From assembly GCF_050920415.1 (NCBI RefSeq), contig NZ_CP169309.1: a DNA stretch of 64,000 bases; one strand, written 5' to 3'. This DNA is from Escherichia coli (GTDB lineage: Bacteria; Pseudomonadota; Gammaproteobacteria; Enterobacterales; Enterobacteriaceae). The position numbers and the translations under genes are program-made. Positions within the stretch are counted from its first letter, which is position 1. Every line of letters starts with the position of its first letter. The notes beneath the pieces were generated by a model. The model had not been told where the DNA came from and did not search any database. It saw only the letters and a program-made list of their open reading frames with translations. Below are positions 52,431 through 58,129 of the stretch, in pieces.

Positions 52431-52445
52431 GGCACGCTTATTGCA
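52431..52445 (+). promoter_or_regulatory. Sigma-54-type promoter upstream of the 309-aa hypothetical gene
   Basis: GGCACGCTTATTGCA (GG-N10-GC spacing, TTGCA -12 element) about 35 nt before the ATG at 52480. Confidence 0.45.
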
Positions 52446-52479
52446 CATCCTGCACAGCATTAAAGACTGGAAGCCACCT

Positions 52480-53409
52480 ATGAGTTTTATTGAATGTTAC
52501 GAACCGGAATATGCGCGCAATTTTATGGCGCAATATCCCGATTCGCCTTTATACGTCCGCAAGGTGTGGAAGAATGAGATTCGCCAGAGCCTGGCATTGA
52601 CCGATATTGCCAGTTGCAAAGCAGTGCTCAACAATGCCAGGGCCTTTGAATTACAGCTTACCTATCGCCCTGTGGAAGAAAATGCCGCAGCGCTATCTGC
52701 GCGCGATGCGATAGTAAACCAGATAATTTTGAGCACCCTCACGCTCCCGGATTTAACCCCAGAGCTTTCACTGTATGCCGTCGGGATTTTGCTCTCCCGC
52801 GCCAGTAAAATGCCGGGCAGAGACGGCGACACTCTCGCCCGGCTGACAGCACTGCCGCAGGCGCTGGCCGATCACGCACAAAAAGGCACGTTACAGGCAC
52901 AGTTCGCACAGCTACCGCCTGTGCCACAGCTGGCGCGCCAACTGGTGACGCTGCTCGGGAGTTTTGCGTTTGACTGGTCGATTCTGCCGAAAAGCCCGCG
53001 CAAAGCCTCACTGCCGTTGCAGGTTACCTTGCTGACGCTGCACGACGCCAACAGCGAAGCCCTGTTGCAGCAGCAGCTTCAGACACAGTGGCAAACTACC
53101 TGGCAACAGCATTTTGCCACCGCGCCGTGGATGATGCGTAACTGGCTAATTTACCGGGTTTATCACGATGTGATTGGCCAGGCAGACGGGGCGGATTATT
53201 TCCCGCTGGTGTGCGATTTTTACCTCATCCGCACGTTAATCAGTTTATGGACGCTGGATGATTCACCGCTGCGGCAGGAGGATATTTTCGCCCTCTTCGC
53301 GGTGTTTGAACGCTGGCGAACCAGTGAAAATGCCGTGCTGATTCGCCAGCAAATTCAGTCATTATGTGCCGCCGACCCGCTGCTTTCAGCGTTTTCGTTG
53401 CTGACGTGA
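52480..53409 (+). CDS. Hypothetical protein, no recognisable domain; apparent sigma-54 regulon member within Flag-2
   Basis: 309 aa from the first ATG downstream of the promoter; typical GC content; the ORF-track start at 52441 is a TTG inside the promoter. Confidence 0.6.
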   Translation: MSFIECYEPEYARNFMAQYPDSPLYVRKVWKNEIRQSLALTDIASCKAVLNNARAFELQLTYRPVEENAAALSARDAIVNQIILSTLTLPDLTPELSLYAVGILLSRASKMPGRDGDTLARLTALPQALADHAQKGTLQAQFAQLPPVPQLARQLVTLLGSFAFDWSILPKSPRKASLPLQVTLLTLHDANSEALLQQQLQTQWQTTWQQHFATAPWMMRNWLIYRVYHDVIGQADGADYFPLVCDFYLIRTLISLWTLDDSPLRQEDIFALFAVFERWRTSENAVLIRQQIQSLCAADPLLSAFSLLT

Positions 53410-53416
53410 GTCGCTC

Positions 53417-53553
53417 TGTGCGCGCTTTGCCCTCACCCCGGCCCTCTCCCACAGGGAGAGGGAGAAACCCTGCGCCCAATTCAGCACCGCGCTCGATCGG
53501 TCCCCTCGCCCCTTCGGGGAGAGGGTTAGGGTGAGGGACATCAGCGCGCGCAT
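53417..53553. repeat. MITE-like composite palindromic repeat, copy C (inverted relative to A and B)
   Basis: Reverse complement of the copy A/B core: ccctcaccccggccctctcccacagggagaggg ... ggggagagggttagggtgaggg with gcgcgc ends. Confidence 0.7.
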
Positions 53554-53596
53554 TCAGCACCTCCATCACATTCACCCACTAACTCACCCAAACACC

Positions 53597-56052: not shown

Positions 56053-56150
56053 GCCTGATGCGCTACGCTTATCAGGCCTACACGCCCTTGCAATATAGTG
56101 AATTCGTGAGGATTTGTAGGCCGGATAAGGCGTTTACGCCGCATCCGGCA
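56053..56150. repeat. BIME: two inverted REP units downstream of the glycosyltransferase
   Basis: gcctgatgcgctacgcttatcaggcctac ... gtaggccggataaggcgtttacgccgcatccggca. Confidence 0.85.
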
Positions 56151-56367
56151 CGAACAGCGCACTTATCTACCCTTCGATTTTAAATACATCTCTTTATGGC
56201 TGGTGAATCGGTAAAGTCGTAGATTGTGGGGGAGCGATCTTTATGAATTCTGAAAAAACCCTGAATCTTGCTAAACATATTGCTTATCATAAATATAGGT
56301 TACACACTATAAAAATTACTGCGTAATTTAACATCTTGCCTAAAAATGATAGAGCGTAAACGATAAT

Positions 56368-57189
56368 ATGACTTCTGATAAAAAAGTAACTTCCGGTACG
56401 ACAAGCCAGAAACAAAACAACATTGTCACTCAAAAAATATCACGCCAGAAGGAATTGTTTCTATTATTTTGGGTTGATGAGTCCGATGATAGCCGACGTT
56501 CTATTTTTGAAGAAGCATGTCTGACGCGTTATTTCAATATCCTTTATTCCCCCGAGTATAAAAAAGAAACACAGATAGTTTATCATTTATCAATTAACAC
56601 ATTTAATCAAATCAAAGAAATATTAGAAATCTTTATAAACAAGAATGGAGGTAAAACTAAAGCAAAGGTTAAAGAAGTCAGTTTATTCTCACATGGGGGG
56701 CCAATTCATGGTCCTACAACCTCAAACTCTATAAATACACCTTCCGTGCCTAAATACCCACAACAAATGGACATATCCGGAGGATGGGATTCAATTGATT
56801 TTAACTGGTCAAACAATGCTATGTTTGTTATGTATGGTTGTCGCACTAGTTATGCAAGTGATGATTCAGGACAAGGTTTTGCCAGTAAATTATCCCTATT
56901 AGATAATTTTAAGGACGTGAATGTCTGGGGTCAAACAGAAAGTACTTATCCATCTTATTTCCCAGATATCAGGACAACGTCGATTATGAGGTCAATAAAT
57001 ATAGGTTGGTCTTTTTCACCAACATATATGGTTGCCAATTCTGAAGGTCAAGGATGGGATGCATTATTCCCGGATAATCGAAATCCATTAAAAGCTCTCC
57101 CTATGCAGTGTTATAATAATGGGACATTGATTTTAACCTGCGATCAAAGCAATTTTAATGATCACCGGAAGAATAAATCAAATGATTAG
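56368..57189 (+). CDS. Hypothetical protein in AT-rich DNA, no assignable domain (candidate toxin/effector of a two-gene cassette)
   Basis: 273 aa single long ORF in strongly AT-rich DNA; no signal peptide; possible His...Cys pair (FSHGGPIHG ... MYGCRTS); weak RBS. Confidence 0.55.
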   Translation: MTSDKKVTSGTTSQKQNNIVTQKISRQKELFLLFWVDESDDSRRSIFEEACLTRYFNILYSPEYKKETQIVYHLSINTFNQIKEILEIFINKNGGKTKAKVKEVSLFSHGGPIHGPTTSNSINTPSVPKYPQQMDISGGWDSIDFNWSNNAMFVMYGCRTSYASDDSGQGFASKLSLLDNFKDVNVWGQTESTYPSYFPDIRTTSIMRSINIGWSFSPTYMVANSEGQGWDALFPDNRNPLKALPMQCYNNGTLILTCDQSNFNDHRKNKSND

Positions 57190-57721
57190 CATTGTATTGA
57201 GAAGCTTTATTTTATTATTCATAATAATAGTGTATCCGGATTATAATAAAAACCCACCTGCCTTTGAAGTATATGGGGAAAATGACATACTTAAGGATAT
57301 GGTTATTAATATGAAAACTTATAGATACCATAGTAAGGAAAACTCTTCCCCCACAGCTATAGTGCAAACCATCCTTTTTAAAGGAAATATACAGCAAGTT
57401 TTTGAAAGCAATGACATGGGTGGTGCGAGCTTCTTTTTTTCTTATAATAATAAGGTTGAAACGCTGGTAACAGACGCTTTCTTTTTAAATAAAAAATTAG
57501 ACAAACTGCATGATGCAAATATTTTTGAGGTTATAAAGCATAAGGAAAACATCGTTATTAGATATTACAAGTGCAAAATTGAATATATGCAAAGAGAAAA
57601 ATTTATCGAAATAGAGATATCAACAAACAAAAATAGTTATTTTAACAAGAATGGAATAAAACAAAAAGATACAAATAAATATAACACATATTTCTTCAAT
57701 TACTTTGAGTCTCAAAAATAA
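57182..57721 (+). CDS. Hypothetical protein with N-terminal hydrophobic anchor, AT-rich (candidate immunity/partner protein)
   Basis: ATG overlaps the stop of the upstream gene (ATGATTAG); N-terminal SIVLRSFILLFIIIVY hydrophobic segment; Asn/Lys/Tyr-rich; alternative start at 57158. Confidence 0.5.
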   Translation: MISIVLRSFILLFIIIVYPDYNKNPPAFEVYGENDILKDMVINMKTYRYHSKENSSPTAIVQTILFKGNIQQVFESNDMGGASFFFSYNNKVETLVTDAFFLNKKLDKLHDANIFEVIKHKENIVIRYYKCKIEYMQREKFIEIEISTNKNSYFNKNGIKQKDTNKYNTYFFNYFESQK

Positions 57722-57724
57722 ATT

Positions 57725-58129
57725 TTATTTTGTCATGCGCGCCCTCCTAATCACCTCAATAATCCCCGTCGTCGACACCGACGGCGTGCGGGGGAAATAG
57801 ACCACCTCACAAATATACGCGAAGCTATCAAACTTCCCTGCCCAGTCATCGCCCATCACCAAAACATCCGCACTGTACCCCCGCAGATATTCCGCTTTCT
57901 GCGCCAGCGATTCCTCGAGAAATACGCCATCCACGCACGCCAGCCCGGCGATAATCGCCATGCGGTCATCCTGAGGGTAAACCGGTGCCCTGCCCTTTTT
58001 GGCAATATTTAAGGCGTCGGACGACACGCCAACCAGCAGCCGTTCGCCCAGCGTGCGGGCGCGTTGTAAAAGGCGCAGATGACCGACATGAAACACATCG
58101 AAGGTGCCGAAGGTGATGACCGTTTTCAT
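57725..58129 (-). CDS. Cytidylyltransferase, TagD-like (glycerol-3-phosphate cytidylyltransferase family)
   Basis: N-terminal FGTFDVFHVGH nucleotidyltransferase motif; about 134 aa; ATG 2 nt after the lfiJ stop with a GGAG RBS inside the lfiJ 3-prime end. Confidence 0.8.
   Translation of the reverse strand: MKTVITFGTFDVFHVGHLRLLQRARTLGERLLVGVSSDALNIAKKGRAPVYPQDDRMAIIAGLACVDGVFLEESLAQKAEYLRGYSADVLVMGDDWAGKFDSFAYICEVVYFPRTPSVSTTGIIEVIRRARMTK

Follow-up and report, generated by a model that had tools for sequence, protein, structure and literature searches.

The segment at positions 52430-58129 of the window (the whole 64,000-nucleotide stretch of Escherichia coli contig NZ_CP169309.1 that was analysed) is VR1 (variable region 1) of Flag-2, the second, lateral flagellar cluster of E. 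coli, and is best explained as a flagellin-modification module of this locus. On balance, we favour the proposal, though by a modest degree of confidence, that a TagD homologue and a three-domain enzyme encoded here place a short, glycerol-phosphate-bearing glycan on the lateral flagellin LafA.

Layout of VR1, its promoter and lafV

VR1 lies between lfiJ and lfgN. Its features, together with lafA and lfiJ, are as follows (strand in parentheses, basis of assignment at the end).

35475..36389 (-): lafA, lateral flagellin, 304 aa, presumed acceptor; annotation in a near-identical genome
52430..52445 (+): sigma-54-type promoter, CGGCAC-N5-TTGCA, CGGCACGCTTATTGCA; motif match, position and conservation
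52480..53409 (+): lafV, 309 aa, homologue of the C-terminal part of FliB; NF038110 match
53430..53537 (no strand): REP-like inverted repeat between lafV and the glycosyltransferase (GT) gene; 21-nt arms, 86% complementary
53597..54346 (+): domain 1 of the enzyme, GT2 (GT-A fold), DDDD at residues 109-112; PF00535, E 6.7e-17
54359..54991 (+): domain 2, second GT-A, GT25-like, EDD at residues 332-334; Foldseek and weak profile matches
54998..56041 (+): domain 3, TagF-like GT-B CDP-alcohol phosphotransferase; motif set
56068..56149 (no strand): REP/BIME palindromes 3' of the GT gene; inverted repeats of the GCCGGATAAGGCGT / ACGCCGCATCCGGC type
56368..57721 (+): pair of cargo ORFs, low in GC, lying between tagD and the GT gene; GC and a DUF4347 match
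57725..58129 (-): tagD-like glycerol-3-phosphate cytidylyltransferase gene, 134 aa, last of the lfiE-J operon; 1COZ match
58132..58566 (-): lfiJ (FliJ homologue); PGAP annotation of a 99.9%-identical strain and sequence

The initial annotation had placed a sigma-54 promoter in front of an unknown gene. Its promoter is supported by a site ~35 nt 5' of lafV (52480), which has one mismatch to TGGCAC-N5-TTGCW and whose GGCA(C/T)-N5-TTGC element is kept at the same place, amid diverged flanking sequence, in 15/17 related loci (those bearing it come from Escherichia, Citrobacter, Phytobacter, Leminorella and others). Because the sigma-54 motif shows no excess across the whole window (40 matches vs 43.8 by chance), the case for this promoter rests on position and conservation; a perfect site at 47776-47791 (-), 5' of lfgB, offers an internal comparison. 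The promoter would drive lafV and probably also the downstream glycosyltransferase gene.

The supposedly unknown gene is lafV, so named in PMC6993521, and almost every related locus has it next to the GT2/GT25-like gene. Its product matches NCBIfam NF038110 (E 2.6e-11; 43.6 bits, cutoff 85) over model positions 107-364 of 373, and PF27117 FliB_C is found in its orthologues. LafV thus resembles the C-terminal ~260 model positions of FliB, the flagellin lysine-N-methylase of Salmonella, and shares its flagellar setting, but it lacks the first ~100 model positions, scores under the family cutoff and is without the usual surface-lysine substrate, since the stretch of LafA between residues 93 and 233 contains no lysine. 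LafV may still have a role in the module.

Other elements of the region lie outside the pathway. Queries with the REP-type repeats (53430-53537 and 56068-56149) gave dozens of matches in essentially every E. coli genome, and the first of these repeats is a repeated genomic element. The two cargo ORFs, one of 273 aa and DUF4347-like (E 2.4e-4), the other of 179 aa with a hydrophobic N-terminus, have GC contents of 35% and 28% (vs 54-56% in the pathway genes) and no counterpart in related loci, and Pseudocitrobacter faecalis carries a Fic-family gene at the same site; they are an unrelated insertion. Both the cargo ORFs and the REP elements fell within the span of the initial annotation, which did not mention them.

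The three-domain enzyme and its linkage to tagD

The glycosyltransferase ORF (53597-56041, +) encodes 814 aa from the PGAP start, while the mechanical GTG ORF for the same enzyme begins at 53531. An earlier division of this protein into GT2-like, GT25-like and TagF-like parts, for which HMM searches had been proposed as a check, agrees with our results. Besides its PF00535 match, domain 1 finds GT2 enzymes in the PDB (e.g., PglI, 9JMA, 3e-8), and its structure model is poor at residues 100-229 (pLDDT < 50). For domain 2, PF01755 does not match the window protein itself and matches a 38%-identical Plesiomonas homologue at 5.4e-6; with the whole model, Foldseek ranks human COLGALT1 (GT25, tandem GT-A domains; E 4e-13) first, and domain 2 also gives weak profile matches to it. 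Domain 3 carries SPYH (548-551), WNH (574-576), YAPTFG (638-643), KLHH (668-671) and TDNSGFIFD. The first catalytic histidine of TagF/TarL, located in the N-subdomain, does not appear to be clearly conserved and could not be mapped with confidence: a low-confidence alignment leads to Y550-H551, which is Tyr in most orthologues, and H576, the second candidate, is replaced by Phe in distant relatives. No transmembrane segment was predicted in the enzyme, and profile searches of the window protein found no TPR or N-terminal polymerase domain.

Over its full length the tagD product shares 46% identity with Bacillus subtilis TagD (1COZ; E 3.4e-31), the next cytidylyltransferase class being ~14 orders of magnitude worse (7e-17), and it has the HxGH and RTxxxSTT motifs. 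It scores 111.9 bits with TIGR01518, under the NCBIfam equivalog cutoff of 165.4, and TagD Lys46 is aligned to Gly. The tagD ATG lies 2 nt past the lfiJ TAG stop, and a GGAG inside the lfiJ 3' end is its predicted ribosome-binding site; the coupling claimed for these genes is therefore tight, across a 2-nt gap and without overlap.

Co-occurrence was examined in 32 usable loci, comprising the window, 28/30 species-level loci and three further loci. The TagF-like domain and tagD are both present in 17/32 and both absent from 11/32, with the domain alone in 3/32 and tagD alone in 1/32 (Fisher p = 3e-5 over the 32 loci, phylogeny not corrected for). All tagD-linked copies (17/17) retain WxH, YAPT(F/Y)G, (K/R)LHHGT and (T/S)D(N/S)SGFxFD, and the two Flag-2 loci that have the domain and no tagD show eroded motifs (WNF, YAPS/YAPA, LLHN/VLQH and DDDAR/DNRAL). 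Domain fission is seen in three species: a free-standing gene encodes the TagF-like domain in Enterobacter wuhouensis and in two Erwinia genomes. This gene directly adjoins tagD in E. wuhouensis and E. oleae, and in an uncultured Erwinia it lies ~1.4 kb away. Comparison with E. coli SMS-3-5 gave dN/dS values of 0.11-0.17 for each enzyme domain (0.125 for domain 1 and 0.165 for domain 2), 0.12 for lafV and 0.03 for tagD; all of these are under purifying selection. Among 5426 complete E. coli genomes, the GT gene was detected in 1277 and tagD in 1276, such that ~24% have both. Co-occurrence, motif erosion without tagD, domain fission and purifying selection all support the donor-plus-transferase pairing suggested in the initial annotation.

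These data also bear on whether the TagF-like domain might move another group, such as hexose-1-phosphate from a UDP-sugar or a different CDP-activated alcohol, with the TagD homologue making a different CDP/CMP donor or serving another pathway. Such a scheme has a hexose-1-phosphate model in the GT-A/TagF-like capsule polymerases and a parallel in FtaD, whose donor is CDP-N-methylthreonine, and it would fit the sub-cutoff score and unconserved Lys46 of the TagD homologue as well as the Plesiomonas and Bacillus relatives, which lie beside other nucleotidyltransferases, not tagD. However, the tight covariation is with a gene that matches bona fide glycerol-3-phosphate cytidylyltransferases (46%, 3e-31 vs 7e-17), and the TagF motifs are eroded in loci without it, and we consider the combined alternative quite unlikely. 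CDP-glycerol would then be the donor.

Proposed modification of the lateral flagellin

The predicted target is a flagellar component, most plausibly LafA, as suggested by operon context, by the Clostridioides difficile and Pseudomonas aeruginosa pathways compared below, and by a Bacillus protein of GT2-TPR-TagF-like architecture that is related to the TagF-like domain (E 2e-96 to the profile) and whose gene lies directly 3' of flagellin genes. Ser/Thr residues make up 26% of LafA overall and 30-40% of residues 121-225, consistent with the Ser/Thr-rich central region described previously. It is conceivable that the acceptor is instead a hook, cap or junction protein, or an envelope glycoconjugate made on lateral-flagella induction, given that classical TagF/TarL enzymes use lipid-linked acceptors and that some polysaccharide clusters with ABC transporters include related, stand-alone TagF-like genes. 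Nevertheless, the enzyme has no predicted membrane segment, its gene and tagD lie within flagellar operons with a conserved sigma-54 promoter, a FliB-derived gene is adjacent in nearly all related loci, and all characterised GT2 plus TagF-like pairs in flagellar loci act on flagellin; together with the position of the Bacillus relative, these observations make a different acceptor rather unlikely.

We propose that TagD, expressed from the lfiE-J operon, would make CDP-glycerol from CTP and sn-glycerol-3-phosphate, and that the soluble 814-aa enzyme would be co-expressed with LafV from the sigma-54 promoter. In the cytoplasm, this enzyme's pair of GT-A domains, GT2 and GT25-like, may furnish Ser/Thr residues of still unfolded LafA with a short glycan, probably of one or two sugars, after which the TagF-like domain would transfer glycerol phosphate from CDP-glycerol to the LafA-linked sugar through a phosphodiester bond, releasing CMP, and the modified flagellin would leave through the flagellar type III apparatus. 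This order of steps is the one we find most plausible.

Flagellin passes unfolded through the narrow flagellar export channel, which argues against a teichoic-acid-like polymer of repeating glycosyl-glycerol-phosphate units made by processive synthesis. A polymer might be expected from the GT-A plus TagF-like multi-domain layout, which is that of capsule polymerases building repeats (the structural matches include Cps3D and Bcs3), and De Maayer et al. use the term "glycopolymers"; on the other hand, characterised flagellar analogues attach a single phospho-moiety, and neither of the additional domains sought was found in the window protein. We therefore regard a long polymer as improbable and a cap or short unit as the likelier product.

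Whether the module acts in this particular strain is a separate matter. The lfgL gene carries a private 102-bp in-frame deletion, which removes 34 aa from the N-terminal part of the hook-filament junction protein, and the deletion junction occurs as one piece in 0/5426 complete E. coli genomes. The module could thus be genetically intact and yet without effect, Flag-2 filaments being unassembled. This is a possibility to be taken seriously, albeit the less probable one: the deletion keeps the frame, no other Flag-2 reading frame in the window is disrupted, the locus of a 99.9%-identical genome, including the part beyond the window end, has no pseudogene flags, and purifying selection acts on the modification genes across E. 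coli. There is little documentation of Flag-2 expression in the species.

Comparison with known systems

The Gram-positive wall teichoic acid enzymes share with the window proteins full-length TagD homology with HxGH and RTxxxSTT and, for TagF/TarL, the GT-B fold and YAPT, K-x-H and (T/S)D-x-S-x-x-x-FD-type motifs that align to TarL, including the H433 position. The host here, in contrast, is Gram-negative and without wall teichoic acid, and the window enzyme is apparently soluble, with no amphipathic membrane-binding region recognised and the first histidine uncertain. TagF-like capsule polymerases (CslB, Cps1B, Cps3D, Cps7D and Bcs3; Litschko et al. 2018, 2021) are likewise multi-domain GT-A/GT-B plus TagF-like proteins, and where glycerol phosphate is part of the polymer they have a glycerol-3-phosphate cytidylyltransferase as partner; the best matches of the window enzyme, in sequence as well as structure, include Cps3D and Bcs3. 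Unlike the window enzyme, they belong to capsule (kps-type) loci rather than a flagellar one, build long polymers on a lipid anchor and in many cases have TPR domains.

Experimentally characterised flagellar counterparts are C. difficile type A (FgtA/CD0240 with FtaA-D/CD0241-0244) and P. aeruginosa b-type (PA1088-PA1091), in which flagellar-locus genes encode a GT2 that glycosylates flagellin Ser/Thr, a nucleotidyltransferase that makes a CDP donor and a TagF-like enzyme that transfers the phospho-moiety onto the flagellin-linked sugar (FgtA, FtaB and FtaD; PA1090 and PA1091; PMC10714395, PMC11833859, bioRxiv 10.64898/2026.02.12.704994). PA1091 fuses GT2 and TagF-like parts in one protein, as does the window enzyme, which we likened to PA1091 and FtaD by their descriptions. 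Those systems use CDP-(N-methyl)threonine from NTP_transferase-type FtaB/PA1090, whereas the window has an HxGH cytidylyltransferase closest to TagD, predicting CDP-glycerol; the window enzyme has a GT25-like domain in addition and lacks phosphoserine/threonine or methyltransferase partners. The initial annotation called such a decoration unusual; phosphodiester-linked groups added to flagellin glycans by TagF-like enzymes are in fact known, although we found no report of glycerol phosphate on any flagellin in the literature searched.

The idea of glycerol phosphate on flagellin is not new: De Maayer et al. (BMC Genomics 2020, PMC6993521) published it on the basis of comparative genomics. They catalogued GT2-1 (average 828 aa, 222 strains, 8 genera), TagD (133 aa, 235 strains) and LafV as Flag-2 VR1 cargo and predicted from genomes that teichoic-acid-type components are probably part of the Flag-2 flagellin glycan. 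The locus, the lfiJ-lfgN position and the gene families are the same as ours, but GT2-1 was annotated there as pfam00535 only, with TagB-type phosphotransferases listed separately (65 strains). The present analysis adds the TagF-like domain in GT2-1, its covariation with tagD and the erosion of its motifs in tagD-less loci.

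Genes of the lateral flagellar locus between lfgN and lfiJ

The lateral flagellar (Flag-2) locus occupies 24-64 kb of the window, flanked by pepD/dinB and, past the window end, by lpcA/fadE, and over this region it is 99.9-100% identical to that of E. coli MFDS1022581. The arrangement described in the initial annotation, a TagF-like enzyme gene and a tagD-like cytidylyltransferase gene within flagellar operons, was confirmed in the window, including the tie of tagD to lfiJ, which is evident from the positions of its start and of the GGAG preceding it. Both genes sit between lfgN and lfiJ, and no capsule export genes were found within the 64-kb region examined.

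Features of the Flag-2 locus (window coordinates)
35475-36389, minus strand: lafA, lateral flagellin
47776-47791, minus strand: perfect sigma-54 consensus TGGCACAGCGATTGCT, about 36 nt 5' of the annotated lfgB start
48705-51463: genes for an EcoRII-type restriction endonuclease and a DNA cytosine methyltransferase (GC about 43%), inserted between lfgA and lfgM
51925-52353, plus strand: lfgN, one border of the stretch studied
52430-52445, plus strand: sigma-54-type promoter motif CGGCACGCTTATTGCA, about 35 nt 5' of lafV
52480-53409, plus strand: lafV, coding for a homologue of the FliB C-terminus
53430-53537 and 56068-56149: REP-type palindromic repeats, one on each side of the transferase gene
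53597-56041, plus strand: three-domain transferase gene, 814 aa from the PGAP start
56368-57721: two overlapping low-GC ORFs (GC 35% and 28%), between the transferase gene and tagD
57725-58129, minus strand: tagD-like gene, starting 2 nt past the lfiJ stop codon, with GGAG within lfiJ
58132-58566, minus strand: lfiJ, the other border of the stretch studied

Searches of 5426 complete E. coli genomes detected the transferase gene in 1277 and tagD in 1276; virtually every E. coli Flag-2 locus carries both. Considering this distribution and their GC content (54-56%, similar to the Flag-2 core), we rejected the possibility that they are recent cargo like the restriction-modification genes. The Flag-2 alleles of the window (51900-58600) share 92-93% DNA identity with nearly all other E. 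coli, implying that the locus belongs to a divergent lineage or was gained by recombination; their dS values against strain SMS-3-5 are 0.17-0.36, and three genomes are more than 95% identical to them.

De Maayer et al. (2020, PMC6993521) described the same restriction-modification cargo from 21 Flag-2 loci of Escherichia. The low-GC ORFs code for a 273-aa product with a weak DUF4347 match and a 179-aa product with a hydrophobic N-terminus; neither has an NCBIfam match, and PADLOC returned no defence-system match for them or for LafV. A 6.7-kb query of variable region 1 (VR1) that includes both ORFs was covered to at least 80% in only 144 of the 5426 E. coli genomes. A Fic-family gene occupies the same site in Pseudocitrobacter faecalis (comparison locus L023, 10197-11273), and the transferase-tagD interval is thus an integration hot spot. 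The two REP elements together explain dozens of matches per genome in essentially every E. coli genome. The restriction-modification pair, the low-GC ORFs, and the REP elements are cargo unrelated to the modification pathway. Elsewhere in the locus, lfgL (38770-39597, minus strand), which codes for the FlgL homologue at the hook-filament junction, carries a 102-bp in-frame deletion relative to the otherwise identical MFDS1022581, removing 34 aa after Leu88 (junction near 39333/39334). None of the 5426 complete E. coli genomes contained this junction in one piece, and the deletion may either be an assembly artefact or disable or compromise the formation of lateral filaments in this strain.

Domains of the putative transferase and cytidylyltransferase

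Profile searches upheld the GT2 and TagF-like parts of the three-domain enzyme proposed in the initial annotation; its middle domain is likewise termed GT25-like, as described below. Mechanical calling placed the start of the ORF at a GTG codon at 53531, within a repeat element. The first domain (approximately residues 20-250) matches PF00535 (E = 6.7e-17 over residues 20-134, PGAP numbering) and carries a DxD motif (CMDDDDYY, 107-114, with DDDD at 109-112), and its PDB matches are GT2 enzymes. It is followed by a second GT-A domain (approximately residues 255-465) that contains an EDD motif. No match to PF01755 (GT25) was obtained for the window protein itself; among 20 homologues one matches at E <= 1e-3 and two at E <= 0.1, the best score (5.4e-6) coming from a 38%-identical Plesiomonas homologue. 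PDB profile matches of this domain to COLGALT1 were weak (E = 0.2-0.4). For the whole model, the best Foldseek matches are human COLGALT1 (E = 4e-13), a GT25 enzyme made of two tandem GT-A domains. We use the name GT25-like for the middle domain, which may or may not belong to GT25 in the strict sense.

The third domain (approximately residues 468-814) has a GT-B fold closest to TagF/TarL. Taken alone, the window protein scores insignificantly against PF04464 (Glyphos_transf; E = 0.04), whereas eight of 20 orthologues match at E <= 1e-3 (best 5e-8) and the orthologue profile matches TarL at E = 0.008, aligning YAPT, K-L-H-H, and TDNSGFIFD to FAPTFR, K-M-H433-P, and SDYSSLIYE of TarL. A search of 1.8 billion cluster representatives yielded 2378 relatives. 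Precomputed PF04464 annotations are also present on relatives. A profile of 30 relatives that match the third domain at E values of 1e-99 to 1e-39 recovered Cps3D (1.7e-14), TagF (6e-11), and TarL (2e-8), and returned no epimerase matches. On the basis of the orthologue scores, the TarL alignment, and the matches of the relatives' profile, the predicted TagF-like assignment stands. No transmembrane segment is predicted in the 814-aa protein.

We also tracked the catalytic residues by profile-to-PDB alignments and motif tracking. The invariant His of the C-subdomain, which contacts the donor phosphate (TagF H584, TarL H433), has its counterpart in KLHH (668-671), which aligns within two residues of TarL K431-M-H433-P; every tagD-linked locus retains KLHH, and 30 distant relatives share the His without exception. 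The base of the N-subdomain (TagF W443-H444, TarL W299-H300) maps ambiguously to either Y550-H551 or H576. The former comes from a low-confidence HMM alignment; members of the Escherichia/Pseudocitrobacter clade have His there, and most orthologues have Tyr. The latter (in WNH) is retained by every tagD-linked locus and replaced by Phe in most distant relatives.

The 134-aa tagD product is a single-domain, full-length homologue of the solved TagD/TarD enzymes, with 46% identity to B. subtilis TagD (1COZ; E = 3.4e-31, residues 1-127 to 1-126) and a match to 2B7L at 7e-27, the next class being ethanolamine-phosphate cytidylyltransferase (7e-17). Its H14-V-G-H17 and RTPSVSTT align to HWGH and RTEGISTT of TagD. 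Its score against TIGR01518 (EC 2.7.7.39), 111.9 bits, is under the equivalog cutoff of 165.4, and this family is still by far the best one (E = 2e-32). Of K44 and K46, the substrate-binding lysines of B. subtilis TagD, K44 is conserved, and K46 corresponds to a Gly beside a one-residue indel, with K45 and R47 on either side. We predict from these similarities that the product is a glycerol-3-phosphate cytidylyltransferase (CTP + sn-glycerol-3-phosphate -> CDP-glycerol + PPi).

Co-occurrence of tagD with the TagF-like domain

The comparison of the two genes across species drew on the window, on 30 species-level loci obtained through the enzyme family, and on further loci; 32 of all these were usable. 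Both the TagF-like domain and tagD are present in 17 loci and neither in 11, with the domain alone in three and tagD alone in one (Fisher p = 3e-5, a value that ignores kinship among loci); that is, tagD accompanies 17 of the 20 domain-bearing loci and is absent from 11 of the 12 that lack the domain. In each of the 17 copies linked to tagD, the motifs WxH, YAPT(F/Y)G, (K/R)LHHGT, (T/S)D(N/S)SGFxFD, and RxxYGLAK are intact; it is these same motifs that are eroded in both Flag-2 loci with the domain and without tagD, one from Leminorella and one on a contig bearing the label Citrobacter freundii M-21. In the third such exception, Plesiomonas (L006, 8001-12000), the motifs are kept, and genes for an NTP_transferase and a PEP-utilising enzyme adjoin.

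Enzymes of this family have a modular third domain. It stands as an independent gene (about 350 aa) in Enterobacter wuhouensis and in two Erwinia genomes, immediately beside tagD in E. wuhouensis and E. oleae and some 1.4 kb away in an uncultured Erwinia; in these three the GT2/GT25-like part forms its own protein. Among Citrobacter-type loci, one (L005, 8001-10628) has a KpsC/S-like third domain (PF05159) together with an acetyltransferase and without tagD, and two (L003 and L004, 8001-9422) have 473-aa proteins that lack the third domain, no tagD, and extra GT9/GT2/GT25 and methyltransferase genes. Comparison with E. coli SMS-3-5 gave dN/dS values of 0.11-0.17 for the individual transferase domains, 0.03 for tagD, and 0.12 for lafV. 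Co-occurrence, motif erosion, domain fission, dN/dS, and near-equal prevalence together support the view that tagD and the transferase form the donor-plus-transferase pair proposed in the initial annotation, functional and maintained by selection.

LafV, the lateral flagellin, and known modification systems

The gene 5' of the transferase gene had been regarded as an unknown gene with a sigma-54 promoter. The promoter motif is indeed present, but the gene is lafV, a FliB C-terminal homologue already named in the literature. Its product matches the FliB model NF038110 with E = 2.6e-11 and 43.6 bits (cutoff 85), covering only model positions 107-364 of 373 (about 260 C-terminal positions). The gap between lfgN and lafV (88 nt to the mechanical ORF start, 126 nt to the PGAP start) leaves no N-terminal FliB part hidden 5' of lafV. 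Pfam gave no match for the window LafV even at E <= 10, and its identity comes from NCBIfam and from the PF27117 (FliB_C) matches of its orthologues. Since sigma-54 motifs are not enriched across the window (40 observed versus 43.8 expected), the promoter call rests on position and cross-species conservation: GGCA(C/T)-N5-TTGC is kept at this position in 15 of 17 loci, which come from several genera and have divergent flanks, and a conserved hairpin after lfgN precedes it. The site upstream of lfgB provides an internal positive example of this promoter type. Sigma-70 and terminator scans of the lafV-transferase and transferase-tagD intervals gave nothing usable. Co-transcription of lafV and the transferase gene is uncertain in E. 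coli because a REP element lies between them; only a short gap is present in other genera.

LafV almost always adjoins the GT2/GT25-like gene, on either side, and the 2020 survey (PMC6993521) listed LafV in 342 and glycosyltransferases in 341 of 592 loci, an almost equal frequency. It is conceivable that LafV has a non-methylase role, such as flagellin targeting or recognition for the transferase. The Ser/Thr-rich centre of LafA noted in the initial annotation is seen in the window sequence, and lysine is absent between residues 93 and 233.

Our best-supported model, which is computational and takes flagellin as the presumed target, has three steps. The tagD product would make CDP-glycerol, the two GT-A domains would place one or two sugars on Ser/Thr of LafA in the cytoplasm, and the TagF-like domain would join glycerol phosphate to the LafA glycan by a phosphodiester bond. 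We regard as possible, although somewhat improbable on balance, the combined claim that lateral flagellin bears a teichoic-acid-like glycosyl-glycerol-phosphate unit in roughly one in four E. coli strains and in many Citrobacter and Enterobacter, and that LafV, a FliB remnant that lacks the N-terminal part and is confronted with a flagellin devoid of surface lysines, is the flagellin-recognition partner of the transferase rather than a methylase. If the glycerol-phosphate prediction is true, Gram-negative enterics would use teichoic-acid chemistry (CDP-glycerol and a TagF-like transferase) to cap a flagellin glycan with an anionic phosphodiester, changing filament surface charge, antigenicity, and phage recognition and possibly altering recognition of lateral flagella by TLR5 or antibodies.

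The hypothesis that such a set decorates LafA is already known as a published genomic prediction, because De Maayer et al. (PMC6993521) concluded that teichoic-acid-type glycopolymers are probably part of the Flag-2 flagellin glycan. They listed LafV, GT2-1 (828 aa, 222 strains, annotated only with pfam00535), TagD (235 strains), and stand-alone TagB1-8 (65 strains). Added here are the TagF-like domain inside GT2-1, which they did not annotate, and the covariation of the intact domain with tagD; the difference between the 235 TagD strains and the 65 in which a TagB-type transferase was recognised is largely explained by this domain. No report of glycerol phosphate on any flagellin was found in the searchable literature. 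Given that locus and hypothesis were published, the advance is modest as a discovery, and the practical gain is a refined annotation of Flag-2 GT2-1 as a three-domain enzyme.

In C. difficile, FgtA (GT2), FtaB (nucleotidyltransferase), and FtaD (TagF-like, with activity reconstituted in vitro) build GlcNAc-P-N-methylthreonine on FliC, and P. aeruginosa PA1091 is a GT2 + TagF-like fusion (PMC10714395, PMC11833859, bioRxiv 10.64898/2026.02.12.704994). A close relative of the third domain, a GT2-TPR-TagF-like protein of Bacillus sp. FJAT-50079 (L040, 7001-10075), is encoded directly after flagellin genes, and downstream of it come genes for an NTP_transferase and a CTP_transf_like-PEP_mutase fusion. 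This neighbourhood is a hint that the flagellin glycan of this Gram-positive bears a phosphonate or a phospho-alcohol. More distant stand-alone TagF-like relatives pair with NTP_transferases in polysaccharide clusters. The three-step model is supported by these flagellin pathways, by the Bacillus relative, and by the more distant relatives, and is weakened by the low confidence with which the first TagF/TarL catalytic His was mapped. Also counted against it are GT-A/TagF-like capsule polymerases, whose TagF-like domain transfers hexose phosphate. If the model is true, the recently established post-glycosylation modification logic of C. difficile and P. aeruginosa, in which a CDP-donor is used by a TagF-like transferase, would gain a new donor. 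Like FgtA/FtaABCD and PA1088-1091, the window genes combine GT2, TagF-like, and CDP-donor synthase functions, here within flagellar (Flag-2) operons, and the transferase was set beside PA1091 and FtaD by description. However, the synthase belongs to the PF01467 family, unlike FtaB (PF00483), and, in contrast to the TagF-like polymerases of group 2 capsules, which lie in kps loci and make a lipid-anchored polymer, the window genes are located in a flagellar locus.
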